Assembly: GCA_963514005.1 (NCBI GenBank)
Contig: OY740805.1
Span: 21,700,001-21,764,000, forward strand
Length of the DNA stretch: 64,000 nucleotides
Source of the DNA: Raja brachyura
Taxonomy: Eukaryota
Direction: 5' to 3'
Below, in pieces: positions 2,633 to 45,058 of this stretch (position 1 is its first letter; every line of letters begins with the position of its first letter). The notes under the pieces were generated by a model. The model worked only from the letters and a program-made list of their open reading frames with translations, made no database searches and was not told the origin of the DNA. The translations under genes and the position numbers were made by a program.

Positions 2633-2730
2633 TTTATTTCAGTTCCTGTATTTTAATCACATCCATGAAATCTACTACTCAGCGATTGGTCAGCAGTGCA
2701 CGTTCTGGTTTGGTTGAATATTTTGATCAT
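2633..2730 (-). CDS. Candidate terminal (cytoplasmic tail/3' UTR) exon of the MHC class I-like gene
   Basis: Non-repeat island with acceptor tttccatcctcag|. Phase-1 reading DDQNIQPNQNVHC* (stop 2690), phase-0 reading stops at 2653, and a minus-strand AATAAA sits at 2633-2638. No homology support. Confidence 0.3.
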
Positions 2731-7298: not shown

Positions 7299-7414
7299 CT
7301 CTCCTCTTTTTTCTCCACCAAACAATAAGCCAGCAATAGCCAAGACAATAGCCAGCAATATCAGCACACACACGGCAATAAGGCCTATGTGCCTGTCTTT
7401 CCTCCTATTTCCTT
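7299..7414 (-). CDS. MHC class I-like connecting peptide/transmembrane exon (apparent 1-nt deletion near its 3' end)
   Basis: tttcag| acceptor, EGNRRKDRHIGLIAVCVLILLAIVLAIAG hydrophobic stretch, |GTAAG donor; 116 nt long, with the basic stop-transfer WWRKKRR in the neighbouring frame. Confidence 0.85.
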
Positions 7415-8539
7415 CTGAAAAATAAGAATGCATAATTTTACAAATCAATTGTTAAGCTGTGCAGCTAAATAGATTGGCACTGTCTGAGGACTTCAGGATG
7501 AAGAAGGGTCTCGTCCCGAAATGCCACCTATTCCTTTTCTCCAGAGATACTGCCTGACCAGCTGAGTTATTCCAGCAATTTGTGTCCATATTCAGTGTAA
7601 ACCAGCATTTGCAGTTGATCCTTACACATGGACAGGGGACGTTTCGTTTTGGGACCTTTCTTCAAACTTTGTTTGAGAAATTGATTAGAAGTCTTTGAAA
7701 ATGCAACAGGAACCCGTAGACAATGTATATTCGAGCAGCAGTAGTTTGCAGGTGTGCACAGCCTAAAATTCTAAAACAATATGATGGAAAAGCAGAATAG
7801 GTAACAACATTGGAATGAGAAACAAAAGAAATACAATATATTGTAGAGATCCAAACGTGAACAAATCAATGTTTTTTAAAGAAATACAGTTTTTGCACAC
7901 ATGCGTGTTTTTTAAGAACGAGCAAAGTTCCTGCCGTTGCAATCAGGCACACCAGTTAACTGGCGATGAACTCATCACCAACTCCCACGAAAACCCTGTC
8001 ACGTGATAGACCCAGCTGCCCTGACGAGGGATCTAGCAATAAGTGGCCCGACCACCAGATGTCGCCAGAATATCTGGATTTTCATAAGATATCTGATCAA
8101 TTGATGCAAAGGCACATGGCTTATGACACTGGGGGTAATAATTAGCATGAATGGAAAAACAATTAAGAGCAAGCAGAGAGTTGTCTTAAAGGAGTGTTCA
8201 GGTTGGGAAACTGCATCTGCAAGTTGGGAATCAATGCAAGAAAGTGAACTACTTATCGTTGGCATTAAGAGCAGATGAAGGGACTGATGGTGCTGTAGCC
8301 TAGATTGCTGATGATACATAGATAGTTTGGAAATTAAGTTTTGGAGTGTGTCAACAGCCTTCAGAGTGAAACATCAGATTGCTTAGTTGTGCATTGTTCG
8401 AGGGAATCTTCAAAAGTGAGCATTTGTGTAGGTTAGTGCAGCATACATTGAATCAATCTGGTATGATCACTGTTTGTCAGGCAGTTATATTGTTCGTTGC
8501 AGAAGCTGTAACTTGCGTCACGGAACTTACTTCATTAGG

Positions 8540-9250
8540 TTTAGTTTTATTAATGCCAGATGTTTCAAGACACAGTGAAAAGGTGTTGTTTGTAATGCTA
8601 TCCAAACAAATTAGATAAGACTATGCATAAATACAAATACAAAATAATAGATAGAGCAAAGAGGAGGATACAGAGTACAGAATATAGTTCTCAGCATTGT
8701 AACGCATCCGTTCCATGGACAATGTTCAATGTGCAATGAGGTTGAGGTGAATCGGGCATTAAACCTACATTATGGAAGGACCCTTCCGAAGCCTGATAAC
8801 AGATGGAAAGGGGGTGTTCCCAAGCCTGGCAGTGCATATTTTCAACTTCCTGTACCAATTGTGTGATGGGAGCAGGAAGGAGGAATGACCAGGGTGGACC
8901 AAGGCAACTAGGTGTAGATTAACTCAATAGTGGTAAGTCTGGCTTGTGTGACGATCTTTAACTCTTTGTATATTCTTGCTGTCTTGGCCAGTGCAGTTGC
9001 CAAATGAAGATATGATGCAACCCAACAACATCCTTTCTCTAGCGGCTTCTATAGATGTTTGCTAGAGTCGCCAGAGACATGATGAATATTCTCAGTCTCC
9101 TGAGGAAGTAGAGGTGTCGGTGTGCCTCCTTGGCTATGTGGTCAGTCCATGACAGAATATTGGATATATTCATGCCAAGGAACATGAAGCTCTCAATCAT
9201 TTCCACTTCGGACCATTGATTTGGATTGGGGCATGTACTCCCCCAGTGCC
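8540..9250 (-). mobile_element. Degenerate non-LTR retrotransposon 3' end (Rex1/L2-like); related copies at about 39350-39745, 49040-49790 and 53260-53700
   Basis: Shared CTGAGGAAGTAGAGG (LYFLR on -), CTTCCGAAGCCTG (RLRK on -) and microsatellite-tail ends. Confidence 0.6.
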
Positions 9251-9562
9251 TTGCTGTTAATCACATCATGAGGAAAGATTCATTTTTTATTTAAACATAC
9301 ATTTCTGGGATTTCAGTTCCACCACTGAGAATCCCAAATACTCCTTCCTTGTATATTAGTTATTTATTTATTTTGATAAATTTTCTGTTGACAAAGTCTT
9401 CTGCTCAAGTGGAGAGTGGGTGCTGATTACGTGATTACTTAGAGCAACAGCAATGAACAAAGAAAGTTTACGCATCTTGGAATATGTGATGTAGTCATAA
9501 TGATTAAAATGGAAACAACAGAATATAATGATGATCTATGAAAGAATATTTAACGTTCTTAC

Positions 9563-9829
9563 CCCAGATGATGGTCTTCCCACCGGGCAGGCTGCTGTGA
9601 TCGACATGACAGGAATACTGTTTCCCATCATACGGATCATACTCAAGGACAGACTTTAGATGATATGTTCCATCGTTGTTGGGTATGACCCCAGAAGATT
9701 TGGTCTCAGAGACATGTTGACCATTCTGCAACCAGCTGACATTGATGGCCGGTGGATAAAATCCAAACACAGTGCAGTACAGGACTGAATGATCATCAGG
9801 GCGGGCAGCGAGAGTGACCTCAGGGGAAA
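9563..9829 (-). CDS. MHC class I-like alpha3 exon (Ig C1-set domain)
   Basis: 267 nt, ttgtag| acceptor and G|GTAAG donor, open frame SPEVT...LYCTVFGFYPPAINVSWLQNG...PNNDGTY...YSCHVDHSSL...W with canonical C1-set motifs. Confidence 0.96.
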
Positions 9830-9979
9830 CTACAAGGCAGTAAGTTGGTTATTTTCAACTTCAGTAATACTTGCACAGTCACCCACCACAAAATATTCTT
9901 CAGTTTACTACAACAACCAAGTTACTGTCCACATCTGCCCCATTTTACCTCTTTCGTCACCATCAACCAACCACGTGGT

Positions 9980-10465
9980 TTAAAAGAGGTGTACAAGAAT
10001 GATCTCAGGAATGAATGGGTTAACATATGATGAGCATTTGATGGCAGAGAACCTGTACTCGCTGGAATTTAGAAGAATAAGGGGGGACCTCATTGAATCA
10101 TATCAAACAGTGAAAGGGTTGGATAGAGTGGATGTGGAGAGAATGTCTCCACTGGTGGGAGAGTCTACGACTAGAGGTCATTGTCTCAATATTAAAGGAC
10201 ATTCCTTTAGGAAAGAGATGAGGTGGAATTTATTTTGTCAGAGGGTGGTGATTCTGTAGAATTATTTGCCACAGAAGGCTTTGGAATCCGTCAATGGATA
10301 TTTTTTAAGGCATAGATGGATTCTTGATTATTATGCATGTTAGGGGTTATGGGGAGAAGGCAGGAGAATGGAGTTAGGAGGGAGAGATAGATCAGCCATG
10401 ATTGAATGGCGGAGTAGACTTGATGGGCCGAATGTTCTAATGCTGCACCCATCACTTATGACCTT
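9980..10465 (+). mobile_element. CR1 LINE 3' end in the alpha2-alpha3 intron
   Basis: LYSLEFRRIRGDLIE...TRGH and CR1 3' UTR. Confidence 0.9.
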
Positions 10466-10782
10466 ATGCATCAGTTGGCTTCCTCCATGTGCTCCAGTTT
10501 TGTCCCATGTACCAAGGACGTGCCGGTAAGTTAGTTGGACATTGCAAATTATCTGAAGTGGAGCTGAATGAATGGAGAATCCGAGGGAGCTGAGTGCAAG
10601 TTGTGAGAGAGAGCTGTTGAGCAGTTCGTCGACATTGCATTGAAAACTAGCATAGACTAAATGGGCCGAATTACCTTTCCCTCTGTCATGATTGGGTCAG
10701 AGATAATATTACTCATTGCCTCAGAGTGAAATAATACTCATCGCCCACCATCAAAAAACAACATCCTTTGTTCTGAACTCAC

Positions 10783-11058
10783 CTTCCCTGGTCAGGTATG
10801 TCTTTCCAATTGCATAGTATGTATGCCATCGTTCCACACAGTCATTTTCTAACAAGCTCTTGAAATAATGGTTCATTTTTACATTCTTGTCCCATTTCTC
10901 TTTGAAGGGCTCAGCTACTGGATCATGCACTGTCCACTTTAGTGTGTTCTTATCAAAACTAAATGCATATCTTCCATCATAAGTCAACTTCAATATCCCT
11001 ACATTGGGACTGTGATCGTTCACCTCACAACCAAACTGTCCTTGAATATAGTGATAAT
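10783..11058 (-). CDS. MHC class I-like alpha2 exon
   Basis: 276 nt, tttcag| acceptor and G|GTGAG donor, open frame YHYIQGQFGCEV...TYDG...KEKWD...LENDCVERW..YY..GKTYLTRE with the C101/C164 pair, H93, Q96, YDG and K146/W147. Confidence 0.95.
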
Positions 11059-11194
11059 CTGAAAGAAAGACAAAATCATTATTTGATTAATTGTTATGAC
11101 ACCAGGGTCCAAGTCATTTATATATGTCACAAGTAGCAAGGGTCACAGCACAGACCCCTGTAGAACTCTACTTGTCACTGAACTACACCCTGAA

Positions 11195-11647
11195 TATTTG
11201 GCCTTCCGTGCAACTGTAGAGACCATATTACTGTACGGGTGTGAGGCATGGACTCTCACTCCAGCACTGTCCGTCTCTCGATGTTACCTACACCCGAATG
11301 CTCAGAATAGTTCAAAACCACATCACCAATGCCCAGCTCCATGGGGAGACTCCACTTCTGACCGAGAAGATCACGTTGAAAAGGATGAGGCTCGCAGGTC
11401 ACTGCCACCGCCACCCAGAAATGCCAGCAAACAAAGTTGTGCTGTGGGAACCCACCCATGTAAGACTCGACCGGGACGACCAATCAAGACGATGCTGAAG
11501 ATGTTTATGGAAGACCCATCTGCAGAGACAAAAGAGGAGCTTGCCAGCTGAATGGAGGACAGAGATGTGTGTTGCATCCGTCATCGTGCCCGTCAGAAAC
11601 CAGCATGGCACTAATGTTATCAACGATTAGTATTATTATTATTATCA
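11195..11647 (+). mobile_element. RTE/RTEX-clade LINE 3' end
   Basis: FRATVETILLYGCEAWTLT...YTRMLR...RLAGHCHRH...VLWEP across frameshifts; (ATT)n tail. Confidence 0.8.
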
Positions 11648-11767
11648 TCCACTACACCGCTCTATCCTGGGGATTTATCCACATTTCTCTTCAAGTGACC
11701 CAACATCTCCTTCTTACTTAACTTCAAAGTGCCCCTGCATGTTAACATTCTCCACATTGATTCTCCA

Positions 11768-12560
11768 TGTGTAAGAAAGAACTGCAGATGTTAAAATCGA
11801 AGGTAGACACTAAATGCTGGAGTAACTCAGCAGGTCAGGCAGCTTCTCTGGAGAGAAGGAATGGGCGTTATTTTGGGTCGAGACCCTTCTTCAGACTGAT
11901 GTCAGGGGAGGGACAAAGATAGAATGTAGGCGGTGACAGTAAGACTGGTGGGAGAATTGCAAAGGGGGAGGGGATGGAGAGATAAATGGAGGGCTATCGA
12001 AAGTTATAGAAGTCAATGTTCATAACGCTGAAGTGTAGACTGCCCAAGCGAAATACGAGGTGCTGTTCCTCCAATTTGTGCTGGGGCTCACTCTGACAAT
12101 CGAGGAGGCCCAGGACAGAAAGGTCAGATTGGGAATGGGAGGGGGAGTTGAAGTGCTGAGCCACTGGGAGATCAGGTAGGATAAGACGGACTGAGCGGAG
12201 GTGTTCAGCACAACGTTCGCCGAGCCTGCGCTTGGTCTCGCTGATGTAGAGAAGTTGACAACTGAAACAGCAGATACAGTAGATGAGGTTGGGGGAGGAG
12301 CAAGTGAACCTCTGCCTCACCTGGAAAGACTTTGGGTTCATGGATGTAGTCGAGGGGGGAGGTAAAGGAACGGGTGTTGCATTTCCTGCGGATGCAGGAG
12401 AAAGTATCGGGGGAGTGGGTCGTTCGGGTGCGAAGGGACGAGTTGACCAGGGAGTTTCGGAGGGAACGATCTCTGCGGAAAGCAGATAGTGGTGGAGATG
12501 GGAAGATGTGGCCAGTAGTCGGATCCTGTTGCAGGTGGCGAAAATGTTGGAGGATTACAT
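11768..12560 (-). mobile_element. PLE 3' fragment (GIY-YIG plus pLTR)
   Basis: ORF 11994-12341 homologous to the C-terminus of the 58452 element. Confidence 0.9.
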
Positions 12561-12799
12561 GCTGTACTTACTATTAAAAGTCCTTACTTTTCTCCATGTC
12601 TTTCTTGGTGAAACCAAATGCAAAGTATTTGTTTCGTACCTCGCCTCCGTCCACAAACACCAAGCACATATTCGCTGCTACATCTTTAAGCAATCCCACC
12701 TTCTCCCCCGTGTTTTGGTGCAATGGCTGCCTCGCCAAAACTCTGCCTGTCCCTTCCTTCTTTGTGTCGGTTTTGTATGTATTGAATGTATGTTCTTCA

Positions 12800-13122
12800 T
12801 GGGCCTGTCCCACTTGGTGATTTTTTAGGCAACTGCCGGCAACTGTCATAGTTGTAGCAGGTCAACGAAAAACCAGTAACAACCTACGTCATCCTGGCGA
12901 CAACCTACGACAGCACCTATGTCAGGAGAAGTTAAGCTCTGCTCAATGGAGTCAAACCCACTGTCGCTGTAAAATTTTCAACGTTCAAAATTTAGCGGTG
13001 AGCAGAAAGACACTACAACGTTTTCCGTGACTGAGACTACCCCCGGCGACCACCGGCGAGCATGTGGAAATAAACTAGTCACCTGCAGTTGCCTGAAAAA
13101 TCGCCTAAGTGGGACAGGCCCA
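12800..13122. mobile_element. Harbinger-type MITE
   Basis: TIR TGGGCCTGTCCCACTT / AAGTGGGACAGGCCCA, flanks TCA/TTA. Confidence 0.8.
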
Positions 13123-16100
13123 TTAGTGTTCATAGCTTGTTTTGGGTGGGGGTTGGGAGATGGAGGAAACTTTTTCTAATCTCTTACCTCGATGTAGAAG
13201 CGATTTTTTTTTGGTATCGTATCTCCGGCCACACTGGGGCCTAACATCGAGGTGTTGGCGGCCTTTGCTTTTTTTTTAAGTGTGACTATATTGTAATCTG
13301 AATTTCATTGAACCTTAATTGGTACATGTGACAATAAACTGACCTTGAAACCTTGAAAAAGATGTGGGATTTTCTGTAATCCGACTCGCCAAAGCCACTT
13401 TGTGGCCTCTATTGTCCCCTTTAGTTTTAAGCTTTAGAGATACAGCACAGAAACAGGCCCTTCAGCCCACACTGGGGACAATTTACATTTATTCTAAGCC
13501 GATTTACCTACATACCTGTACGTCTTTGGAGTGTGGGAGGAAACCGAAGGTCTCGGAGAAAACCCACGCAGTCATGGGGAGAGCGTACAAGCTCCTTACA
13601 GGCAACACCCGTAGTCAGGATCAAAGGCGGGTCTCCAACGCTGCAGGTGCTGCAAGGCAGCAACTCTCCAGCTGTGCCACTGTGCCACCCTCTACTCACC
13701 CACTCGAGTTATTCCCTCCTTTCTTTACATTCCTCATAGCTCCTGCCTGATTCCATCCTCCTGATCCTTACATGCACTTTCTTTTTGTTTCTTTCTAGTT
13801 AAGTTTATCACCTTTTTGGTTATGCAAGCTTCCATTCCTTTGCCATTCTCATCCTTCCTCACACTGGAACTGGTGATTAAATAACTCATACATAAGTCAT
13901 GGGAGTCACGGTAACAGGACAATGTACCAGGACATTGTAACATGTGCATATCCATTCCACCTGTGCTTATAATGCAGAATACTTCCTACTTTCAATGGGA
14001 TTTTCTGCCAATAATATAAACCACCTGATTGCCACATGCATGAAGTCAACACAATTTAAGAAGGACACAAGATAGACACCAGAAGCTGGAGTCACTCAGC
14101 ATCTCAGGTGAAAAGGAATGTGACATTTTGGTGGCAGGTGTGAAGGAGGTCTCAACCAGAAACATCATCTATTCCCTTTCTCCAGACTTGCTGCCTGACC
14201 CACTGAGTGACTCCAGCTTTGTGTGTTAATCTTCGGTTTCAATCAGCATCCGCAGTTCCTTCCTAAAATTAAGAAAGACACAACGTGTTGGGGTAACTCA
14301 GCAGGTCAGGCATCATCTCTGGATAATCCACAGGCTACGATCTTTAGGTCCATCTGCTTGCCGTTTCCTAGGAAACTGTTCCTGATTAATCTGTTCAGTG
14401 CCACTCCCGGGTATACTCGGGTCATGGCCAATAGTGAAATAAAAACGTGGCAGCAACAGATTAACAAGGTGTGGACAGAATGTGGGGACTTCAGTACAAG
14501 TTTTTGATCCAAGACCAGGTGAGAGAGAGGGGGAAGACAGAGGGGGGAGAGAGAAGGGGGAGAGAGGGAAGAGGGGAGACGGGAGCGTGGGGTTCATTTT
14601 CCCCACACAAGCCATAGGTGAATGGGTGATCCGAACCCAAGCACCAAGTTGAAAGCGGCCGAAGGTGCGCACCCCTCGAATCAGCCCCCAATCTCCCACG
14701 ACCACACTCTGCGGGCTGCGGGTCGGATGGAGCCGAGATGTGGGACAATGTTCATCCGTTCACAGTGATGTGATGGACGCGGGGGTCTGGACCAATCGCT
14801 GACAAGTCCCGCCCCCGGCAACGTCAAGACCATTATTGGACTGGTCTGTTGAGCGGTAGTCGGTCCTTTAGCTTGGAGGTGATGCCGCCTTTCGGATAGG
14901 TGGTGTTTCGACAGAGCAGCCATTCGGTAAGTTTGCTTTTGGCGATGCAGCTTTTCGGCTCGTTGGCTTTTAGGCGTCCCACCCTTTTGGTTACTTTGTG
15001 TTTAGGCGTCCCATCCTTTCGGTTAGTAGGGGTTTCGTCTTCGTCTTCATTCGGTTTATTGGCGTTTCGGCCTCATTTCTATTCGGTTCTTTGGCTTCGA
15101 CGTCTTTGCTTCAGCTTCTCGTCCGTCAGTGCCACGTCCGGGTACCGGACCAAGGGTCTGGTAGAATCTCCACATAGTGAGAGGGAGCTGTGTTACCCCT
15201 TCTACTTTGCTCCCGCTTCCCAAAGAGGAAAATGGAAGGACGAGGAGCATGACATGGACAATGGAAGCATGGAAACAGGCACTTCGGCCCAGCCAGTCCG
15301 CACTGACCAGTGATACCCGCACATTAACATTATCCCACACACACTAGGGACAATTTATATTTATATAAAGCCAATTAGCCTACAAACCTGTATGTCTTTC
15401 AAGTGTGGGAGGAAACCAAGATCTCTGAGAAACCTCAAGCGGTCACGGGGAAAAAGTACAACCTCCATACAGACAGCAGGCTTGTACCTTGGTCTATGGC
15501 ACTTTGAGGCAGCAATATGTTTACAAAAGTTGGAAGAATTATGCCTGTGGCAGAAACACCACTGCAGAATCCCAACCTGATCCTATCTTATGGATGGCTC
15601 TTCCTATCAGAGAACCTGGAATTAAGATGAAAGGAAAGAAACCCTGGATCTATGCCCCAGGTGTGAAATAAGCTCATATTTGTTACAAGGACAATTATTT
15701 CGTATAGGTTAGAGATAAAGCATGAAAACAGGCCCTTCAGCCCACTGTACCCACATTGACCAGCAATCTCTGTACATCAGCACAATCCTACATACGAGGT
15801 ACAATCTACAATTTTTACCGAAGCCAATTAACCTACAAACATGTGTGTCTTTGGAGTGTTGGAGGAAACTGGAGCACCCAGAGAAAACCCTCACATTCAC
15901 AGGGAAAATGTACAAGCTCCGTACTGATAGCACCCGGAGTCAGGATCGAACCCAGGTTTCTGGAGCTGTGAAGCAGCAGCTCCACCGCTGTGCCACCACG
16001 CTACCCTGTTGTCATTAGTATTGTGCGCTGAAATGTTTCCATCAGTGATTATGGCAACTCTCTCCAAACCTGTATACATTTTCAGTAGACCAAGCAGTTC

Positions 16101-18212: not shown

Positions 18213-19073
18213 TGTGGCTCATCTAAGACGGTGTGCCCACATTGATTTAATTTATGTGATGGTGTATTGGCAGTTTATAAGGTGCAGCAGTGAGGGGGAA
18301 CCTCTGTGTTACTCCAGTTGCTGCGGGGACTGGAAACAGCAAGGCACTCCCCCCCCCCCCCCCCCCCCCCCATCTCAGCAGAAGCAACCTGGGGATGAAT
18401 TAAGATGCACTGTGTCCTCATTTGCCTTCTCACACCTGCTTTTATACAGGTTGGTAGACTGTCAGGACCACACAAATATGCACTTTTGGGGTTTGAATAT
18501 GGTTGGGTGAAGTTTCTGTGTTGTTTTGGGTGTTAAGAAAGTTGAAGTTAGTGGGTTACTGGTTGTTAATGTTTCTGTGTGCTGGGTTGGAAGATATAAT
18601 AATGTGTAGCATGGGCATGTTTCTTATTAGGTCATTCCATAACCTGTGATGGTTGCAGACATTGCAATGAGGATATGGCATAGAAAAAAAAGGCCAAATG
18701 TCAACTTTTAGCATGTTGCTGGAAATGTACAGTGAAGGTTAATTAAGTGCCTAACAATATTTATTGAAGTGTAAAATCAAAAATACAAGTGTGTAAATCG
18801 CACAGAGAGTGTATTGAGTACAAGGGAAACATAGGAAAGAATGGGCTGTGAGTGAAACTGTAACAAAATGGGTGTGTTAGGGAGAGACAAAATGGATGAC
18901 TGAACCAATGATAAGAGCAATGTTTTGTGTTTACATGATTATTGAATAAAACAACCAGCAGAAGCAACCTGGGGATGAATTAAGATGCACTGTGTCCTCA
19001 TTTGCCTTCTCACACCTGCTTTTATACAGGTTATCTATCTGCTTTACGGTGCCCAACCTTGGGACCCGTAACA
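18213..19073 (+). repeat. 5' LTR (861 bp)
   Basis: Direct repeat of 25711-26577; about 9 substitutions by eye plus a poly-C length difference; AATAAA at 18945. Confidence 0.97.
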
Positions 19074-19078
19074 GATCG

Positions 19079-19096
19079 TGGGAGCTCGTCCGGGAT
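19079..19096 (+). promoter_or_regulatory. Primer binding site, tRNA-Pro type
   Basis: TGGGAGCTCGTCCGGGAT matches the classic tRNA-Pro PBS TGGGGGCTCGTCCGGGAT at 17/18 positions, 5 nt downstream of the LTR end. Confidence 0.9.
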
Positions 19097-19255
19097 CGGC
19101 GCCACTTCGTGGTTGGAGTGGAGCTGATCAACTAATGACACCTGAGACCGAGACAGGGCTGATTCGAGCTGAGTGCCGAGAGCGGTGAGTCAGAGCAGAG
19201 ACTGTGCCATTGCTGAACTGTGATCCATCGTGAAAGACGGTGAAAAGCTGCTGCC

Positions 19256-20848
19256 ATGTCAGAGAGTGGGAGGAAGAGCCTAGTGTGGGACATTCGGAAG
19301 TCACTGCTCACCTTGTCAGCTGCAGAGCTTTTTCACATCGCCAAAGAGATGGGTTCAACGCCAGATTGGGACCTGTCTGAACTCCATGAAGGAGACCATG
19401 AAGGCTGCTTCGACAAAATCAGTTCATTCATGTACAGTAAGCATTTGTTAGAGTCAGAAGACAGTGGAATGTCTGAATTGTTGGGTTTGAAAGATGCTAT
19501 TGATGATATTGTAAAGACCCGAAAAGTATTGTGTTTGCCAGAGCTAGAAATACAACCCATAGGTGCTCACGGAGATACTACTAACCAAATGTTCCAAGTC
19601 AGTTCTACTTTGCCAAACAGTGATGCTTTCACCACTGACCCAGTACTACCTACTGCTGTATCTGACTCCACAAACGCAGAGTTACTCGAAATGCTCACTA
19701 GCTATGAGGAGCTTGGTAAAAGGCTGAAACAAAGCATTATGGTACCGACAACTCAGTCACCAGAAGACTGTCCGCCAGTAGCAGCACAGGCTAATAAGTC
19801 TCAAAGTGACTCATCATACCACAACCCGACAGTTGTTCAACCCAATCGAGAGGGGATGATTTCCATAAGAGATCTCGCCTATCTCCAGAGAAGGGAGTTT
19901 AAGGTACAAGGGGGCCAGGTTGGTGATCATTCGTCAGACATCAGTTATAGCAATGTCTGTAAGCAAATAGAAGAAGGGATCAAAGAAGGCTTCCATGATG
20001 CAGAGATAGTTCGTGGTGTGCTCCGGATAATGAAACCTGGAATTTTTAAAGAGATGCTAATGAACAAGGATGACTTGACTGTGATGGAACTCAAGGGATT
20101 TCTCCAGGCTCACCTAAGAGAAAAAAGCAGTGCAGAGTTATTCCAAGAGTTAATATGTGCCAAGCAGGAGGAGAACGAGACACCACAACAATTCCTCTAT
20201 CGTGTCATAGGTTTGCAGCAACGTGTCCTATTCACATCAAAACTGTCAAACGCAGGTATAAAATACAGTGCAGCTACTGTTCAAGATGGCTTCCTACATA
20301 CAGTTTACCAGGGATTAGGCTACAAACAATCTGAGCTACGCAGAGAAATAAAACCTCTCTTGTCCAGTGGTGAAGTAAGTGATGAGACAATATTGCGCCA
20401 GGTAATGAAAATCACCAGTGAAGAAAGTGAGAGACAAAAGAGGATAGGTCCTTTTCGTCGGCAGGCTGCAGTTCATGCACATGGTGCACAGTTTGAGCCG
20501 AATACAGCAAAAGAACAGGGTAGCAAGCAAGAGAGTGTGGCGCCAAAAGTAAAGACAGACCCAATTAAAGAGCTTACAGCCAAGGTAGATGAGCTCACAA
20601 GTATGATTGAGGCCATGAAACGACAAATTAAGCCACAACCAACAGATGTGAGGAACCAATATTCTCAATATAAAATGAGACCCAGGAGAGATAAATCATA
20701 CGGTTGTCCAAAATGTGTTGAACAAAACCGCCCAGACTCTAACCATTGTTTCTCATGTGGCGAGGAAGGCCACAGAGCTGTTGGCTGCTTAAAGAAACAG
20801 AAGAGTCAGGGAAACTTGCACCGGTCGCTGCAGGGGGGCGCCCAGTGA
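19256..20848 (+). CDS. gag: Gypsy Gag polyprotein, 530 aa, intact
   Basis: Long ORF after the PBS, capsid-like QEENETPQQF motif, C-terminal CCHC knuckle CFSCGEEGHRAVGC. Confidence 0.93.
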   Translation: MSESGRKSLVWDIRKSLLTLSAAELFHIAKEMGSTPDWDLSELHEGDHEGCFDKISSFMYSKHLLESEDSGMSELLGLKDAIDDIVKTRKVLCLPELEIQPIGAHGDTTNQMFQVSSTLPNSDAFTTDPVLPTAVSDSTNAELLEMLTSYEELGKRLKQSIMVPTTQSPEDCPPVAAQANKSQSDSSYHNPTVVQPNREGMISIRDLAYLQRREFKVQGGQVGDHSSDISYSNVCKQIEEGIKEGFHDAEIVRGVLRIMKPGIFKEMLMNKDDLTVMELKGFLQAHLREKSSAELFQELICAKQEENETPQQFLYRVIGLQQRVLFTSKLSNAGIKYSAATVQDGFLHTVYQGLGYKQSELRREIKPLLSSGEVSDETILRQVMKITSEESERQKRIGPFRRQAAVHAHGAQFEPNTAKEQGSKQESVAPKVKTDPIKELTAKVDELTSMIEAMKRQIKPQPTDVRNQYSQYKMRPRRDKSYGCPKCVEQNRPDSNHCFSCGEEGHRAVGCLKKQKSQGNLHRSLQGGAQ

Positions 20849-20869
20849 TCGGATCTGAGAAACGTCCCC
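20809..20869 (+). promoter_or_regulatory. -1 programmed ribosomal frameshift signal (G GGA AAC plus H-type pseudoknot)
   Basis: Slippery heptamer 20809-20815 in the gag frame, pol in the -1 frame, 5-nt spacer, stem 20821-20830/20843-20852, loop GGGGGCG complementary to CGTCCCC at 20863-20869. Confidence 0.85.
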
Positions 20870-23800
20870 AAACTCAAACTGATTGTGATGACAACAATAC
20901 AGATCTTCCTTTGTCCACCACTTCAGAAGTAGCGAGCACACAGTACAATGACAAACAAAGCAAATCATCTTCTCAGTTCTCTTTTGAACCACAATGTACC
21001 AAACGTAAAGCTGTCGCCAACATGATAGGAAAGAAGGCTCTGATACAATGTAATCCAAGTGGTTTGGCGGTAACTGCATTGCTTGACTCGGGCGCACAAG
21101 TTAGTATTATCAGCCGTGCCTGGAAAGATCTACACCTGCCTGATCTAAACATTCGACCAATGTCTGAGATCATTGAGGAACTGGATGAGCTAAAGGTTTA
21201 TGCAGTCAATGGAGAGCTCATTCCTTTTGATGGATGGGTTCCTATAATGACCAACCTACCTGGGAATGAGGACCCAAGTCTTGCCATCAGTGTCCCATTC
21301 TTAGTTAGCAGCTTGACCATGGAAAGACCGTTGATTGGTTTTAATGTTCTTGAGCAGCTTGTTGAGGGACAGCCAGAAAGGTTAGTACCTACTCTGATAC
21401 AGTTGTTTCAGAATGCCATTGGTGTTTCAAGTGAGAAAGCCGAAGCAGTGGTGAGTTTTATTCAGACAGTGGAGCCAAGTATGCCACAAGGACTGGTGCA
21501 AAGGACGTGGTCGTTCCAGCTGGACAAGTCAGCTGGGTGAGATGCCGGGTTCCCCCAACCATGAACTCCTATGGCCGTCTGGTATTGTTCGAATCAGACG
21601 AAGGCAGTCAGCCTTTGGATCAGCTAGATCTAGGAGCAGGTTTGGTTGAAATGCAGAATCCTTTAAAACCGTATGTCACCATTGCTGTTGGCAACAACAC
21701 CAGCCATGACATTATCTTGCCACGTAAGACAGCCCTGGGCACCTTACAGCATATTGAAAGGGTTGTGGAAGCTGACCCTCCAAGAAAAGTGGCATCCATG
21801 ACAACAGTCAACGAGGTCACCTCTCAACTTCATCAACCAACTCCATCACTGTGGCATCCGCTCGTGAACCTTGATCACCTGGAGGAAAATCAGCAAGAGG
21901 TTGTCAGGAAAATGTTATTTGAGGAGTCAAAAGCCTTTGCCAGAGATGAAAATAATATTGGATGCAACCCAAGCCTGCAAATGGTGATAAATCTGAAAGA
22001 TGACATTCCTGTGCAGAGAGCGTACACATCCATCCCAAAACCGCTGTTGAGAGAAGTAAAGGAATATGTTCAAGACCTCCTTGTCAAGGGATGGATTGTG
22101 AAATCTAGGTCCTCCTATGCCGCTCCAGTTGTGTGTGTGCGGAAGAAAGACGGTACGCTGCGCCTCTGCATAGATTATCGTCTATTGAATCAGAAAACGG
22201 TGCCGGATAGACACCCACTGCCTCGAATACGAGACTTGCTGGACACCTTGGGTGGTTACTCGTGGTTTAGCATCCTTGACCAGGGTAAGGCCTACCACCA
22301 GGGTTTCGTGGCTGAAAGTTCACGTCATCTCACTGCTTTCATCACACCCTGGGGGTTTTATGAGTGGGTAAGGATCCCGTTGGCCTATCAAACGCGCCAG
22401 CAGCATTCCAGAGAAGTATGGAGGAGATGTTGAGTTCGCTGAGGGATGAGTGCTGTATACCCTACCTCGATGACATCCTCTGCTACTCGCGGTCATTTGA
22501 AGATCATGTGGAAGTGGTCCGCAAGGTTCTCCAAGCTTTGCAACATCAAGGGGTAAAGCTCCGATCTGAAAAGTGTGAGTTGTTCAAGCAAAAGGTTCGC
22601 TATGTTGGCCGCCTTGTCTCTGCTAACGGTATTCGAGTTGATCCCAAGGACCTGAATGCTGTGCTGGCTTTGAAAGACAAAACACCACAGACGGTAGGTG
22701 ATTTGAGAAGGGTTCTCGGTTTTCTCAGTTACTACAGGACATACGTTCAAAACTTCTCAAAGATAGCAAAGCCATTGTATGAGATGCTCCAAGGGAAATC
22801 CTCAATTCAAGTCCAGTCGCGACAAGGTAAAGCCAAGGGACCCCAACTGTCATCCAGGGCACCCATACAGTGGACTGCTGAACATCAAAGTGTACTCGAG
22901 AGACTGATTGACATGTTGACACATCCACCGGTTTTGGCATACCCAAACTTCGACAGGCCTTTCGTCTTGCATACCGATGCATCAGAGCAAGGTCTAGGAG
23001 CTGTTCTCTACCAGCAACAGGAGGGAAAGCTACGAGTCATTGGGTATGGGTCACGGACTTTGGCAGCTGCAGAGAGGAACTACCATATGCATAGTGGCAA
23101 GTTGGAGTTCCTTGCACTTAAGTGGGCAGTGTGCGAGAAATTTAGGGACTACCTCTATTATGCTCCACACTTTACCATCTTCACTGACAACAACCCACTT
23201 ACTTACATCATGAGCACTGCCAAACTCAATGCGGTTGGTCACCGGTGGGTGGGAGAACTGTCAGACTTCCATTTTGACATCAGGTACAGACCAGGAAGAG
23301 TCAACACGGACGCAGATACCCTGTCCCGAGTCCCTCTTGATATTGACCAGTACATGTCAACATGCACAGAGGAGTTGTCGCAGGATGTAGTGAATGCAGC
23401 TTGGGAAGGAAGTCAAGCAGCCCAGAGGAAAGATGTGGCATGGATAGCCGCTCTCGCTGTCTCCTCTCAAGATGTTGTCCTACAGCCCCGCGCCCCTCTA
23501 CACAGCATTAGTCATGACGACTTGGTCCAAGCTCAAAGAGAGGATCCCGAGATAGGAAAGATCTTAAAGCTCAAAGAGATGAACAGTAAATTGACAGACG
23601 ACATCAGAAGGACTGTGAGGGGAAGCGCATGCAAGCTTCTGCATGAGTGGAGCAGGTTGGACATCGAGGATGGGTTGCTGTACCGAAGAACAACAAGTAG
23701 GAAACAATTAGTACTACCTCTGAAATACCACCCTGTGGTATTAAAGCACCTCCACGACAACATGGGACATGTGGGCATGGAGAGAGTTCTTCACCTCGCC

Positions 23801-39179: not shown

Positions 39180-39348
39180 NNNNNNNNNNNNNNNNNNNNN
39201 NNNNNNNNNNNNNNNNNNNNNNNNNNNNNNNNNNNNNNNNNNNNNNNNNNNNNNNNNNNNNNNNNNNNNNNNNNNNNNNNNNNNNNNNNNNNNNNNNNNN
39301 NNNNNNNNNNNNNNNNNNNNNNNNNNNNNNNNNNNNNNNNNNNNNNNN
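39180..39348. other. Assembly gap
   Basis: Run of N. Confidence 1.
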
Positions 39349-40344
39349 ATGAGATTTTTACTCAGAGCATGATAACAGGTCTGTACAGACAATAAACATA
39401 GATAATACATAATACAACTAACAAAAAAACAAAATCAATAAATTACTAACCTCAATACTAGGGCAAACAAAATCTGAAAGTCCTTAGTGCAACCAAAGAC
39501 AGTCCATAGAATTTCACAGTTGAGGTTAGCATTGTGTAGTGTTCATTTGCATGATAGTTGTTGGGAAGAAGCTATTCTTCAACCTGGTGGCCATGGTTTT
39601 CAAGCACCTGTACTTTCTTCCCCATGGTAGGAGGTAATGAGAGTGTGGCCAGGGTGATGATGTTGGCTACCTTTTTGAGACAGCGTCTCGTGTGGATCCC
39701 TTCGATGGTGGTGAGGTCAGTACCCATGATGAACCGGGCAGTATAATATCCTGATTATTCACAAATTTAAGTACTTCATCTGAAGAGTAGGCCTAAGTCG
39801 TAGAATTGCTCTCTATATATCCCTTCCTCTATTTTTGCTTTAAGATGCACCTTAAATGTTTATTTTGCTAATTGTCATGTAATGTCATTATACTGCTCGA
39901 AGTAAAATGTTACATAATAATATTCTTACTTGAAGCATTCTCATTGAAGCATTTTCCTACATTGGAACTGCTTTAAATATGTTATTTATATCTATGTCTG
40001 TTTCCCCTTTCACCAACTTAGATTATTACCATCAAAGGAGAATGTCATTTTTTGTGTGCTGCTGGAATGTGATCATTTGATGTGCGCTGGAATGTGATAA
40101 TTAAAATCTTCCCGTATATTGAACCCTGAACTACAGTACACTCAACTATGAATAATGCACAAAATCAAGCCAAAGTGTTGGAGTAACTCAGCAGATCAGG
40201 CAGCATCGCTGGTGACAGTGGATAAGTAATGTGTCAAGTCAGACCCTGTAGACCTATGGACTGTCTTTGGTTAGACTAAGCATTCAAGGTGTTTTTTGCA
40301 CGCATTGGGACTATCAATTTGCTGAATTTTTAGTATGTTATTTA

Positions 40345-41168
40345 TTGTGGATAAATGTGAGGTTATCCACTTTGGTGGCAAAAACATGAGGGTAGACTAT
40401 TATCTGAATGGTGGCAGATTAGGAAAGGGGGAGATGCAACGAGACCTGGGTGTCATGGTACACCAGTCATTGAAAGTAGGCATGCAGGTGCAGCAGGCAG
40501 TGAAGAAAGCAAATGGTATGTTAGCATTCATAGCGAAAGGATTTGAGTATAGGAGCAGGGAGGTTCTACTGCAGTTGTACAGGGTTTTGGTGAGGCCACA
40601 CCTGGAGTATTGCGTACAGTTTTGGTCTCCAAATCTGAGGAAAGACATCCTTGCCATAGAGGGGGTACAGAGAAGATTCACCAGACTGATTCCTGGGATG
40701 TCAGGACTTTCATATGAGGAAAGATTGGATAGACTCGGCTTGCACTCGCTGGAATTTAGAAGATTGAGGGGGGATCTTATAGAAACTTACAAAATTCTTA
40801 AGGGGTTGGACAAGCTAGATGCTGGAAGATTGTTCCCGATGTTGGGGGAGTCCAGAACAAGGGGTCACAGTCTAAGGATAAGGGGGAATTCCTTTAGGAC
40901 CGAGATGAGGAAAACATTCTTTACACAGAGAGTGGTGAGTCTCTGGAATTCTCTGCCGCAGAAGGTAGTTGAGGCCAGTTCATTGGCTATATTTAAGAGG
41001 GCGTTTGGATGTGGCACTTGTGGCTAAAGGGATCAGGGGGTATGGAGAGAAGGCAGGTACGGGATACTGAGTTGGATGATCAGCCATGATCACATTGAAT
41101 GGCGGTGCAGGCTCGAAGGGCCGAATGGCCTACTCCTGCACCTATTTTCTATGTTTCTATGTTTCTAT
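40345..41168 (+). mobile_element. Young CR1 (HER1-like) LINE 3' end, RT C-terminal frame open
   Basis: ORF 40335-41027 KCEVIHFG...RDLGV...LVRPHLEYCVQFWSP...RRLRGDLIE..K...TRGH; (TTTCTATG)n tail. Confidence 0.95.
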
Positions 41169-41799
41169 TTGTATTGTCTTACAGTTCTGCTCAGCTGCTA
41201 CGAGAATGTCATTGATTTGTAGTCAGCACATATGACAATTGAACACACTATACTCTCTTTCCTTCTGGACTCTCTCGTGGAGTGGGAACAAACCTAACAT
41301 AAGTAAAGTGGTGCCATTCATCCTTTGTCCCCAATCTCTGATATTCTATAAGATCATAATTATCCTCTAGCAGACCACCATTTTTCCAAACTAAACTTTT
41401 CCTTTTGTATCCAAGCATCTTTCAACCCTGCCTCAAGCATCTGATTGACTGAATGCCCACAGCCTTCATGGACAGAGAATTTCAAAGACTAATTCCCCTC
41501 TGGGTGAAATAATTTAATCTCTTTACCACACTGAATTCAATGATTCAATAGTATTTTATTATCACAGGCACCGAGGTACAGTGAAAAGTTTTGTTCCGTA
41601 TACAACTCAGTAAAATCATATAGCAGATCTAACCTAGGCAATACACAAGTGTCACCATGTTTTGGTGCCATAAGAATGTCTGAAGCCTTATTTGTAAACT
41701 GTGAATTTTGGTTTCAGACACACCAGTCTGGGGAGAAATAAAAAGACCATCCCTCATGTTCTGAACTTTGACTCGCTTCATAAAGTGCAGAATTTGGAT

Positions 41800-43720
41800 G
41801 TTCAGCCCTTCGAGTTTACTCCACAATGTAATCATGGCTGACCTATCGTTCCCTCTCAACGCCATTCTCCTGTCATCTCTCTGTGACCTTTGACACTCTT
41901 AGAAATCGGGCGACATGGTGGCGTTTTCTGGCTTTGTATTCCAGTCCTCTTGATATAAATCATCTTCCTGACTACCGGTTCAATTTGCAAATTAACCTTT
42001 TGGGAGTCCTGCACCAGCACTCCCAAGTCACTTTGCTCCTCCGATTTCTGGATTTTATCTCCATTTGTAAAATAATCTATGCCTTTATTCTTATTACCAA
42101 AATGCATGTCTCCACGCTTTGCTATACTGAATATCATCTGCCACTTCTCTGCCCACTCTCCCAAACTGCACATTCACGTTACAGGAGGAGAATTCGGCCA
42201 TTCGGCCCATCGAGTCTACTCCACCATTCGATTATGGTTGATCTGTGCCTCCTAATGCAATTTTCCTGCCTTCTCCCAATGTTAACCCGTTCTAATCAAC
42301 AATGTGTCGATCTCTGCCTTAAAAATATCCATCAAAGTGGCCTCCACAGCCCTCTGTGGCAATGAGTTCCTCCTTTCTAAAAGAGCACCCTTTAATTCTG
42401 AGGCTATGACCTCTGGTCCTAGACTCACCCACCAGTGCAAACATCCTTTCCACATCCACTCTATATAAGCCTTTCATTATTCTGTAAATTTCAATGAGGT
42501 TCCCCCCTGAACCTTCTTAACTCCAGCGAGTAGAGGCCCAGTGCTGTCAAACGCTCATCATATGCTAACCCACTCATTCATGGAATCATTCTTGTAAACC
42601 TCTTCTGAACCAGAGCCAGCACATCCTTCCTCAGATAGGGGGCCCAAATTTGCACACTGTACTCCAAATGTGGCCTAATCAGCGCTTTTGGAGCCTCAGA
42701 ATGACATCTCTGTTTTTTGTAGTCCAGTCCACTTGATATAAATCACTTTCCTGACTACCGATTCAATTTGCAAATTAACTTTTTGGGAATCATGCACTAA
42801 CATTCCCATGTCACTGGGCACTCAGATTTCTGGGTTATCCCTCCATTGGTAAAATAATCTACGCCTTTATTCTTATTACCAAAATGCATGTCTCCACACT
42901 TTGCTATATTGAATTTCATCTGCCACCTCTCTCCCCACTCTGCTAACCTGAACAGGTCCTTCTGCAAAGTCCTTGCTTCCTCTACACTGCCTGTCCCTCC
43001 ACCTATTTTAGCATCAACTGCAAACCTGGCCACAAAACATTCTATCCCCTTATCCAAATCATTAATAAACCACGGAAACATGACGACCGCACGTTTGGAG
43101 CTAAGAGTTGTCACTCAGTCAAAAGCAAAATCCACAGTGTGTGAAACATTCCAGAAGATTAGTCAAGCATGATTTCCATTTCATAAATCCATGTTGACTT
43201 GGACTAATCGTTTTACTGCTATCCAAATGCCCCATTATTACCTCTTTAATAATTGACTCCAGCATCTCTCCCACCACCGAAGTCAGACAAACTGCTCTGT
43301 AATTCCCCGTTTTCTCTCTCGCTCCTTTCTTGAAAAGTGGGATAACATTAGCTATCCTCCAAACCACAGGAGCTGATCCTGAATCTATTGAACATTGGAA
43401 AATGATCACCAACGCATCCACTATTTCCAGACCCACCTCCCCGAGGACCCTGGGATGCAGACCATCAGGCCCAGGGGATTTTTCATTCTTCATTCCGGTT
43501 AGCCTACCCAATACTATTTCTCGCCTAATGAACATGTATTTCAATTCCTCTACCCCCTTAGGTCCTCTGTCCTCCAGTACATCTGGGAGATTGTTTGTGT
43601 CTTCTTTAGTGAAGACAGATCCGAAGTACCTATTCAACTCTTCTGCCATTTCCTTGTTGTCCATACTAATTTCACCTAAGTCAACCTTCAAGAGACCCAC
43701 ATTTGACTTTGCTAATCTTT
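41800..43720 (-). mobile_element. Cluster of CR1 fragments (RT N-terminal part and repeated C-terminal parts)
   Basis: KSPGPDGLHP, NYRAVCLTSVVG, QHGF..KSCLTNLLE (43119-43700); RT core remnants at 42797-43114 and 41856-42173. Confidence 0.9.
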
Positions 43721-43819
43721 AGTGACTGTGCAAATATTTTCCTGATTTTGCATTGTACTTGTGCCTCGCTCTCTTCCGACATTTGACCATAAACTTGAAC
43801 CTGTCAAACAAGGCACTTT

Positions 43820-44740
43820 GTGTGGGAAAGAACTGCAGATGCTAGTTTAACTCGAAGGTAGACACAAAATGCTGGAGTACTCAGCAGGCAGGCAGCATCT
43901 CTGGAGAGAAGGAATGGGCGACCTATCAGGTCGAGGCCCTTCTTCAGACTGATGTCAGTGGATGGGACAAATATAGAATGTAGGCAACGACAGTAAGACT
44001 GGTGGGAGAACTGGGAAGGGGGAGGGGATAGAGAGGGAAAGCAAGGGCTATTTAAAGCTGGAGAAGTCAATGTTCATGCCGCTTGATTGTAAACAACCCA
44101 AGCAAAATATGAGGTGCTATTCCTCCAATTTGCACTGGGCCTCACTCTGACAATGGAGGAGGCCCAGGACAGAAAGGTCATATTGGGAATGGGAGGAGAG
44201 ATTGAAGTGCTGAGCAACCAGGAGATCAGGCAGGTTAAGATGGGCTGAGCAGAGTAGTTCAGCAAAATTATTGCGGAGCCTGCGCTTGGCCTCGCTGATT
44301 GAGAGAGGTTGCCACATGCAACTGCGGATACAGTAGATGAGGTTGGAGGAGGTGCAAGTGAGCCTCTGCCTCACCTGGAAATACTGTTTGGGTCCTTGGT
44401 TGGAGTCGAGGAGGGAGGGAAAGGGACACGTGTTGCATCTCCTATGGTTGCAGGGGAAAGTGCCTGGGGAGTGGGCGGTTTGGGTGGAAAAGGACGCGTT
44501 GACCAGGGAATTTCAGGGGAACGGTCTCCACGGAAAGCAGAAAGGGGTGGAGATGGGAAGATGTGGCCAGTAGTGGGATCCTGTTGGAGGTGGCAAAAAT
44601 GATGGAGGATTATATGCTGTGTGCGACGGCTGATGGGGTGGAGGGTGAGGGCAAGGGGGACTTTGTCATTGATACGAATGGGGGTAATGGAGGGGAGGGG
44701 AAGCAACAGCGGAGCATCGAGGAAACCTTGGTGAGTGGCC
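43820..44740 (-). mobile_element. PLE 3' fragment
   Basis: ORFs 44117-44374 and 44371-44706 homologous to the PLE linker and GIY-YIG; pLTR at 43820-43950. Confidence 0.9.
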
Positions 44741-45006
44741 TCGCCCCTGTTTGTTTTACACGAGTTAAAATCAGTTTAAACCAAGATCAGCAGTTCTTTC
44801 TTCCTCAAAGGAAACGGGGCATGGTGCAAATCAAAGCAGAAATTTCAGTCTGGATTTTACTGAAACAGGAGAGATTAAACCCTTTTAACGTCTGCATGTA
44901 CGTCAGACTAACGCGCATTTTTAAATTTAGTCGCCTCCTGTCCAGATTGAGATTAAGTCAAGACGTTTTCAGACAGTAGAGAATAAAATTAGAATCATTA
45001 ACTTAC

Positions 45007-45058
45007 CGGCTAGAGCCCCTTGCACACGGATAAAACTCAGCAAGATGAACAGAATCAT
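45007..45058 (-). CDS. MHC class I-like exon 1, signal peptide (MILFILLSFIRVQGALA)
   Basis: ATG at 45058, hydrophobic 17-aa peptide ending in an A-x-A cleavage motif, then G|GTAAGT (consensus phase-1 donor); lies upstream of and colinear with the other exons. Confidence 0.85.

Follow-up and report, generated by a model that had tools for sequence, protein, structure and literature searches.

A skate paralogue of the non-classical MHC class I gene UGA, probably in decay

Results

A minus-strand class I gene within repeats

The window, that is, the whole 64,000-nucleotide stretch of Raja brachyura DNA analysed here, carries an MHC class I gene on its minus strand, all exons of which were found, from the leader at 45058 to the tail exon at 2690. 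Exon 1 (45007..45058) encodes the leader in 17 codons plus one nucleotide and ends at a GT donor in phase 1; a second in-frame ATG lies at 45079, 21 nt 5′ of the leader ATG, as it does in annotated Leucoraja and Amblyraja proteins. Exon 2 is a remnant (30704..30827) encoding the 3′ half of α1 (HLA ∼50-90), with an intact GT donor, no acceptor, and the first 137 coding nt missing. Exons 3 (α2, 10783..11058) and 4 (α3, of the C1-set, 9563..9829) are open frames in which all four cysteines are kept, including the C101/C164 pair of α2, and they match Pfam MHC_I (E=3.8e-14) and C1-set (E=4.7e-20), respectively. Exon 5 (7299..7414) encodes the connecting peptide and transmembrane (TM) segment in 116 nt, where the orthologue has 108 nt, and exon 6 (2690..2730) the cytoplasmic tail. 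All six lie on the minus strand.

An earlier, sequence-only reading of the locus had named five of these exons (leader, partial α1, α2, α3 and TM), each of which we located, and had overlooked the tail exon, which falls outside its range. Its statement that the exons join in phase 1 holds for most of them: the introns are bounded by GT-AG in phase 1, with two exceptions, the α1 remnant for want of an acceptor and the TM exon for a donor that is out of phase. Every residue it named sits at the HLA position given for it in the window translation. The numbering itself was checked against classical-type outgroups, which show Y-Y-R-F-T-K-W-Y-W-Y in the same alignment columns, and agrees by eye with the HLA-A2 rows of a published alignment. 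Comparison with 290 proteins revealed neither a second class I gene nor a GPR139-like gene in the window.

At least 34% of the region 7299-45058 consists of repeats, as judged by self-BLAST. Intron 2 houses an LTR retroelement of ∼8.4 kb on the plus strand (18213..26577), Gypsy-type by domain content, with reverse transcriptase (RT), RNase H and integrase in separate frames, LTRs at 18213-19073 and 25711-26577 that are 98.3% alike, and a target duplication of 4 bases; it is a passenger and no part of the class I gene. Two tblastn matches, one at 38047-37955, where the odd N-terminus of P0014 aligns, and the other at 43084-42857, seem to stem from repeats.

The gene falls in the UGA lineage

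Among 456 PDB matches of the window α2 domain, 9CH4 scores 116.5 bits and the next 56.5. The title of that entry, released 2026-03-18, is ‘shark nonclassical MHC CLASS I, UGA’. Three GPR139-like proteins of the Leucoraja cluster (P0026, P0027, P0019) were dropped, and 19 near-duplicates, isoforms and partial models were listed for removal before the first tree. In trees of 161 and 58 sequences the window gene lies in a skate clade (support 1.0) within a shark/ray UGA clade (1.0), and the per-domain trees likewise place it with skate UGA (α1 0.90, α2 0.86, α3 0.998). We treat as UGA whatever falls in the clade of UGA-labelled sequences, having found no formal published definition; the label comes from 9CH4 and from supplement rows that stand outside the tree and were matched by phmmer and by eye. 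Two such rows, Lerinacea_UGA and Gcirratum_UGA, were labelled in the 2023 supplement (Suppl. File 10 of PMC10751288) and match by eye P0024/P0025 and the 9CH4 chain, to which a zebra-shark protein of the same clade aligns at 568 bits. The names of the relatives at NCBI are generic only, and the literature searched yielded no primary description of UGA.

Sequence identities agree with this placement. The window gene is 85-88% identical to skate UGA members in α2 and 93-94% in α3; to UGA it is 55-89% identical, as against 30-34% to classical-type shark/ray proteins and at most 40% to every non-UGA protein. Judged by its sequence, then, the gene is a UGA paralogue from a skate and belongs to a non-classical class I lineage that had already been named in sharks and rays; this bears out the earlier assignment to non-classical cartilaginous-fish class I.

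An apolar groove shared across UGA

Most of the substitutions in which the sequence-only reading saw a rebuilt, hydrophobic-looking groove are lineage-wide: T143F, Y159L, D122Y, 123A, F70, I73, I74 and W81 recur throughout UGA, with Y159L and D122Y present and T143 absent in 23/23 intact relatives, and Q242H in α3 is skate-wide. A described lineage therefore already carries them. F66 and W167R, on the other hand, occur in none of the 23 relatives; private to a damaged copy, they are uninformative on lineage function. The copy keeps Y59, R84, K146, W147 and Y171, which makes five of the nine anchors covered (UGA, 3-6 of 10; the classical-like set, 9-10 of 10), and, like UGA, has lost the peptide-end anchors T143, Y159, W167 and Y/F123.

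Over 39 groove positions, the apolar fraction is 0.55 (0.51-0.62) in 25 UGA sequences and 0.46 (0.33-0.58) in 53 classical-like ones, ranges that overlap; at the 31 positions present in the window copy it is 0.58 (UGA 0.52-0.65, classical-like 0.35-0.55). By sequence alone, the apolar groove is a normal trait of the UGA family and not a novelty of this copy. As for the ligand, which the earlier reading supposed to be hydrophobic or absent, a 2025 review (PMC12562908) describes UGA as CD1-like and lipid-binding, the latter as a personal communication in its section 2.1; a hydrophobic ligand is thus reported for the lineage, and F66 and W167R lend it no support.

Outside the window, we observed a conserved lineage that is sister to UGA, has an even more apolar groove and matches none of the labelled lineages in the supplement rows compared; UFA was rejected as an identity for its member P0067, which scores 115 bits on the UFA structure 8GM8 and 207 on 9CH4.

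Private changes and damage

Several changes are private to the window copy: F66, T67, E77 and S86 in α1, and T117 and R167 in α2. S86 removes the N86 glycan site and T117 replaces A117, which we take to be a β2-microglobulin contact; N86 and A117 are both present in 23/23 relatives. Position 167, at the groove edge, is Leu in 21/23. The TM exon is 8 bases longer than its orthologue and contains an 11-mer twice, 22 nt apart; the resulting frameshift strips the basic stop-transfer stretch, leaves the apolar segment in place and creates no stop. The tail exon, read in the orthologue frame, has Asp for the tyrosine of the YxxPhi motif, and in the shifted frame meets a stop near 2653 after 25 codons. 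The motif, present in 14/14 full-length skate tails and 24/33 UGA tails, is missing from this copy.

With the 5′ half of α1 missing and 8 nt added to TM, the copy has no complete α1-α2-α3-TM-tail frame. An open frame of 262 codons results if α1 is skipped, and one of 337 codons if a cryptic acceptor at 30929 is used. The copy departs from 6 of 98 near-invariant columns (one of them the junction codon), compared with 0-2 in eight other skate sequences, 2-7 in non-skate orthologues, and 11 and 16 in two sawfish paralogues, a leave-one-out count that favours skates because they are over-represented. In length, its branch (0.07) does not exceed the Amblyraja/Leucoraja stem (also 0.07). No RNA-derived contigs were listed over 9500-11150, which has no bearing on expression.

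The α1 break and the sister copies

The missing α1 half has no tblastn match anywhere in the window: with nine whole orthologues and their α1 N-terminal 48 residues as queries, only weak, scattered matches appeared (best 23.5 bits), none near the expected place, and a candidate at ∼41325 proved to be a chance motif. The run of Ns at 39180-39348 was dismissed as the cause, since at 8.3 kb from the break it cannot account for a break inside the exon unless the assembly was misjoined. Among the contigs listed for four public runs, none bridges 30827/30828. Those that hold the abutting sequence (30828..31005) continue on the exon side, in all four runs, with 43-93 letters unlike the window, while a contig of run X2 is identical to the window over 30674-30827 and then continues with 19 differing letters; depth across the break in X2 is accounted for by the flanking contigs listed alone. 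As the break is unseen in the contigs listed for all four runs, it may reflect misassembly or a deletion private to this copy.

Sister copies with N86 are present in two of the four runs, and three α1 types occur in X1 and X2, the runs in which this copy is present. A sister contig of X2 differs from the window at 10 of 154 bases; eight of these are readable, all amino-acid-changing, and seven restore the orthologue residue. S86 recurs on a contig of a second organism (run X4). UGA has been described as single or low copy in passages of PMC12562908; the three α1 types and the three UGA proteins of sawfish fit this, whereas the ten distinct, near-identical UGA proteins in the genome of Rhinoraja longicauda do not. 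Sawfish chr34 carries a row of four MHC-Ib genes, three of them named ‘F10-like’ and the fourth ‘class I-related’, and four sawfish proteins used here, from one 19.9-Mb contig, carry the names of these genes (matched by name, not ID).

Discussion

The window most plausibly holds a damaged skate UGA paralogue, likely decaying under relaxed selection, a reading to which we give a probability of about three in four: the loss of half the α1 exon and the shifted TM frame make decay likely. Sequence, together with a model of the skate protein P0022, shows intact UGA to be a class I heavy chain of three domains, its groove apolar and free of peptide-end anchors. Heavy chain and β2-microglobulin are the textbook class I pair. 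By analogy with CD1, intact UGA would pair with β2-microglobulin, load lipid in endosomes by way of its YxxPhi tail and display it to innate-like T cells. As assembled, the window copy would be unable to build a groove, because the missing piece encodes the four α1 floor strands by the secondary structure of the model; even with a whole α1, it would be without N86, A117, L167 and the tail tyrosine. Most likely it arose by duplication within what appears to be a multi-copy skate UGA cluster, in which sister copies would keep the function.

Less likely, the locus is a live, diverged UGA paralogue, its α1 gap reflecting either misassembly or a private deletion allele. The normal allele would then make a full membrane protein with F66 and R167 in its groove, a new tail and no glycan at N86; lacking the endosomal tyrosine motif, this protein would remain on the cell surface in the manner of CD1a. 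Such a reading is favoured by the want of any listed contig across the break in 4/4 runs, where both flanks continue with other letters, by the recurrence of S86 in a second organism, and by the good state of the remaining gene: the other exons keep intact splice sites, α2 and α3 are open with their four cysteines and α3 is close to its orthologues, and even after the frameshift an apolar segment remains and the reading continues without a stop into the final exon. Against it stand the independent losses of two residues invariant among the relatives (N86 and A117), the lost stop-transfer stretch, the Arg at a groove edge that is otherwise nearly always Leu, and the α1 differences, nearly all amino-acid-changing, which fit relaxed constraint (or positive selection). 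Still more doubtful is the bolder idea that skates built a gene family from UGA, much as mammals did from CD1. This locus would then be a live, specialised member with a whole α1 in its normal allele, a groove reshaped by F66 and R167 and no glycan at N86, whose tail, a product of the frameshift without the endosomal tyrosine motif, would reroute it to CD1a-like lipid loading at the surface.

That skipping of the broken exon yields a groove-less α2-α3-TM product with a role of its own seems very improbable. In its favour, the leader and α2 are both in phase 1 and the skipped form stays open. Against it, in-frame skipping comes automatically, all class I exons here being in phase 1; relatives, and apparently other individuals too, retain α1; and half a groove platform would be unlikely to fold. 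The suggestion of the sequence-only reading that this might be a non-classical lineage not yet described, its groove newly rebuilt, to which the generic NCBI names and the want of a primary UGA paper in the literature searched lend some colour, is hardly credible now: the gene nests in the UGA clade alongside the zebra-shark protein and 9CH4, its α2 is 85-87% identical to skate proteins matching Lerinacea_UGA, and intact members share the substitutions, so that the 9CH4 title, the trees and the supplement labels refute it unless the labels are wrong. A decayed classical UAA gene with anchor losses as pseudogene noise can practically be dismissed, since, although Y59, R84, K146, W147 and Y171 are kept, identity is far higher to UGA, the losses are fixed across UGA and the trees refute it.

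Being damaged, and belonging to a named lineage whose structure is solved, the copy alters little. Its value lies in the evidence it gives that UGA, described as single or low copy, duplicates and decays in skates. Were it live, a CD1-like family of cartilaginous fish would be split into endosomal and surface-resident members, in parallel to mammalian CD1a-e, which would bear on the age of lipid presentation; the stronger lead is the UGA-sister lineage outside the window.

Comparison with other class I systems

Structural comparisons rest on an AlphaFold model of intact P0022 built from 94 sequences (pLDDT 89.6); an earlier model from eight sequences (pLDDT 51.6) was too poor for structural use. 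W-category molecules, described in passages of PMC10751288 as having two ectodomains and alpha/beta gene pairs, differ from the window gene, which has three ectodomain exons. Classical shark UAA (e.g., Triakis, PDB 6LUP) shares the fold and the retained Y59, R84, K146, W147 and Y171, but is only ∼30-34% identical, belongs to a separate clade and keeps most anchors. By eye, in the labelled rows of Suppl. File 10, none of UBA, UCA, UDA and UHA emerged as the closest lineage; the supplement of PMC10751288 has no UEA label, and UEA is set apart only indirectly, through the UGA match.

UFA (PDB 8GM8, released 2024-11-27) is, like UGA, reported as CD1-like and lipid-binding, and as MHC-linked, in passages of PMC10751288 and PMC12562908, the authors of the former finding CD1-UFA orthology hard to assess. 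It differs in that 8GM8 is outside the best 60 of the 456 PDB matches of the window α2, the K146/W147 stretch is, by eye, missing from the labelled rows for UFA, and the P0022 model matches it with a Z of 20.9 at 29% identity. CD1 (chicken 3JVG, human CD1d) resembles UGA in its apolar groove and in the YxxPhi tail of intact UGA members, and differs in being 20-24% identical to the skate model; chicken CD1-1 (3JVG) ranks second to 9CH4 (Z 24.4, rmsd 2.6, 262 aligned), but its score is tied with the 23.2-23.8 of HFE, ZAG and classical class I, and fold similarity therefore fails to set CD1 apart.

The closest system is UGA itself, whose structure 9CH4 fits the P0022 model with a Z of 29.0 (rmsd 1.9, 268 aligned, 58% identity). 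The window copy departs from it in lacking the α1 5′ half, N86, A117, L167 and the tail tyrosine and in its frameshifted TM exon, whereas it shares with it the clade, the exon layout and the residues F70, I73/I74, W81, Y122, A123, F143, L159, K146, W147 and Y171.

Gene structure and damage

The minus strand of the window holds a single MHC class I heavy-chain gene, a new but damaged member of UGA, an already named non-classical lineage of sharks and rays. Its exons, all read from the sequence, are the leader (45058-45007), an alpha1 remnant (30827-30704), alpha2 (11058-10783), alpha3 (9829-9563), the transmembrane (TM) exon (7414-7299) and a cytoplasmic exon (2730-2690). Pfam identifies alpha2 as MHC_I (E 3.8e-14) and alpha3 as C1-set (E 4.7e-20); the introns measure, in order, 14.2, 19.6, 1.0, 2.1 and 4.6 kb. 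The five exons of the sequence-only reading are present, as are all residues it listed, and the cytoplasmic exon had been overlooked. Its HLA numbering also holds, with textbook anchor letters in the same columns of classical-type outgroups and, by eye, concurring HLA-A2 rows in a published alignment. At least 34% of 7299-45058 recurs inside the window by self-BLAST; an N gap lies within intron 1 (39180-39348), and further gaps at 55855-56072 and 63404-63590. Intron 2 carries a plus-strand LTR retroelement, Gypsy-type by domain content (18213-26577). The element is young, with LTRs 98.3% alike across 867 bases, TG...CA ends and a 4-base target duplication; its RT, RNase H and integrase are spread across several frames, and a 267-codon frame inside it (24741-25544) has no Pfam match.

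The alpha1 exon has lost its acceptor and first 137 coding bases, no fragment of which was found anywhere within the window; in a thorny-skate UGA model, the missing residues form the four strands of the alpha1 floor. The TM exon runs to 116 nt versus 108 in the orthologue, and one 11-mer is present twice, 22 nt apart, which suggests slippage. Through this frameshift the basic stop-transfer stretch is lost and the last exon is read in a different frame; even in the orthologue frame, the tail tyrosine is Asp. The glycan site N86 and A117, found in 23/23 relatives, are S and T here. Of 98 near-invariant columns, the window gene departs at 6 (one being the junction codon); the counts are 0-2 for the other skate sequences, 2-7 for orthologues outside the skates, and 11 and 16 for two sawfish paralogues. 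Skates are over-represented in this comparison, which biases it in their favour. A cryptic acceptor at 30929 (minus strand) would join 34 non-coding-derived codons in frame to the alpha1 remnant (then 30928-30704), leaving a predicted frame open for 337 codons; we saw no evidence of its use.

The alpha1 break in independent DNA

We compared one stretch, 30450-31350, with contigs of four public sequencing runs (three organism labels, four studies). Two of the runs, X1 and X2, hold three alpha1 types apiece; one type in X2 matches the window at all of 154 bases, the second differs at 10 positions and the third at 32 of 225. All eight listed differences (of 10) of the second type alter amino acids, so the alpha1 of the window copy has accumulated amino-acid changes and few silent ones; seven of the eight bring back the orthologue residue (S66, E67, Q77, N86, E87, junction codon), and sister copies with N86 therefore exist. 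The window-identical X2 contig has 19 differing letters beyond 30827, contigs holding 30828 onward have 43-93 toward the exon side in 4/4 runs, and at the break X2 has a depth of 14.4, the level expected from flanking contigs alone. Among the contigs listed, the simplest reading is that the sequenced animals carry extra sequence at the break, which is probably the absent half of the exon, and that the break in the window is a private deletion or misjoin.

We favour, with a probability of about 0.75, the reading that this gene is a UGA duplicate whose constraint has relaxed and which, as assembled, does not function, the job of the lineage being left to sister copies. That none of the contigs listed in the four runs bridges the break, and that the TM frameshift introduces no premature stop, speak for an intact normal allele whose product would be a diverged, newly tailed membrane protein, a reading that we consider possible if rather unlikely. 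A product made by skipping alpha1, the exon whose acceptor is gone, seems very improbable.

Assignment to UGA

The window alpha2 matched nine of 23 candidate proteins, all from skates, rays or sharks, at 63-87% identity, and 18 of the 19 proteins returned by a profile search fall in this same group. Among 1.84 billion 50%-cluster representatives, an intact skate UGA found three matches 64-87% identical, the other 147 listed reaching at most 39%. In the PDB, the window alpha2 scored 116.5 bits on 9CH4 ('Crystal structure of shark nonclassical MHC CLASS I, UGA') versus 56.5 on the runner-up of 456 matches, and a zebra-shark UGA member scored 568 bits on 9CH4, aligned across all 268 residues. By eye, in the available part of PMC10751288 Supplementary File 10, the Gcirratum_UGA row matches the 9CH4 chain and the Lerinacea_UGA row the Leucoraja proteins P0024/P0025; the elephant-shark row there, Cmilii_UGA, is by eye strongly dissimilar to elasmobranch UGA. 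The intact thorny-skate protein, modelled with a pLDDT of 89.6 and used as structural query, aligned to 9CH4 with Z 29.0 (rmsd 1.9, 268 residues, 58% identity) and to UFA (8GM8) with Z 20.9 (29% identity).

FastTree analyses of 161 and 58 ectodomains nest the window gene in a skate clade, in batoids and in the UGA clade (1.0 each), and trees of alpha1, alpha2 and alpha3 singly place it with skate UGA (0.90, 0.86, 0.998). An undescribed lineage, as had been considered possible, is barely credible. UGA is already described, in what is available of the sources: a supplement of 2023 (PMC10751288) includes a skate sequence, and a crystal structure has been public since March 2026, although our literature search did not find a primary paper on it. 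UGA carries most of the cited substitutions and the remaining ones are private to this damaged copy, so the novelty falls away, as does the functional inference, of a molecule without canonical peptide binding, as far as it draws on the private changes. A decayed classical gene is the least credible reading of all, and the same ectodomain trees set the gene apart both from classical-type proteins and from the other class I proteins of sharks.

Residues were counted over 23 UGA-clade proteins. L159, Y122 and W147 occur in all 23, K146, Y59, W81 and I74 in 22 each, Y171 in 20, F70 in 19 (position 70 being apolar in 23/23), I73 in 17 (the remainder L) and F143 in 17 (T143 in none); position 123 is A in 14, I in 8 and V in 1. 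Within the clade, R84 and H242 are confined to the 8 skate sequences. Because the groove substitutions are lineage-wide, the rebuilt groove is that of UGA in general, with L159, Y122, F143, A123, F70, I73, I74 and W81 as lineage traits; this does not extend to F66 and R167, which occur in 0/23 relatives, position 167 being L in 21/23. Over 39 positions that we take to be groove-facing, placed by landmarks, UGA proteins (n=25) have an apolar fraction of 0.55 and classical-like proteins (n=53) one of 0.46, with overlapping ranges.

UGA copies and neighbours in other species

In Rhinoraja longicauda there are 10 distinct UGA proteins (P0001, P0010-P0018), which share 95-100% identity across residues 56-285, a region in which 9 of them are distinct; all are on a 41.5-Mb contig, apparently one. 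This is likely a recent tandem expansion, or else assembly duplication; it runs against the description of UGA as 'single or low copy' in the available part of PMC12562908 and deserves more attention than the window gene. The sawfish Pristis pectinata has three UGA-clade proteins (P0004, P0009, P0048), of which two have diverged strongly, departing at 11 and 16 of ~100 near-invariant columns; this suggests that UGA duplicated and drifted independently there; the available part of the PMC10751288 supplement gives a class Ib row at sawfish chr34 13.96-14.22 Mb, with GPR139-like genes ~0.3 Mb away. In Leucoraja, the NCBI model LOC129716032 (P0002, P0003, P0019-P0023) combines a GPR139-like receptor with exons of UGA, which is probably read-through or mis-annotation; the window contains no GPR139-like match.

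A sister lineage of UGA

Across sharks and rays, UGA has a sister clade (support 0.98; P0067, P0215-P0225, P0227, P0228), mostly of one cluster per species, with 59-84% identity within and 32-46% to UGA. The nine members scored have an apolar fraction of ~0.70 (0.67-0.74) at the groove positions, with H59, G97, C99, L143 and L159, and W167 kept in 8/9. P0067 (Leucoraja XP_055486430.1) has a ~12-residue insert separating alpha2 from alpha3; its accession directly follows that of UGA XP_055486429.1, apparently on the same 127,421-base contig. We rejected assignment to UFA (115 bits on 8GM8 versus 207 on 9CH4), and by eye the clade matches no labelled UAA, UBA, UCA, UDA, UFA, UGA or UHA row in the available part of PMC10751288 Supplementary File 10, a file that holds no UEA. 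It may be one more CD1-like class I lineage, a third and unnamed one, which may already bear a name in other papers or supplements, and it too deserves more attention than the window gene.

Comparison with CD1 and other class I molecules

A YxxPhi motif occurs in 24 of 33 UGA tails and in all 14 full-length skate tails. YxxPhi-type tail motifs steer the endosomal traffic of CD1, and their presence in UGA would fit a lipid-loading picture, short of proof. Sister UGA copies would present lipid on a beta-2-microglobulin-bound heavy chain, a role that we infer and that is reported second-hand. A 2025 review (PMC12562908), in its available part, describes UGA as CD1-like and gives its lipid binding as a personal communication; for UFA, the available part of PMC10751288 gives CD1-like lipid binding as unpublished data. 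Against the thorny-skate UGA model, chicken CD1-1 does not stand out from HFE, ZAG and classical class I, all of them at Z 23.2-24.4.
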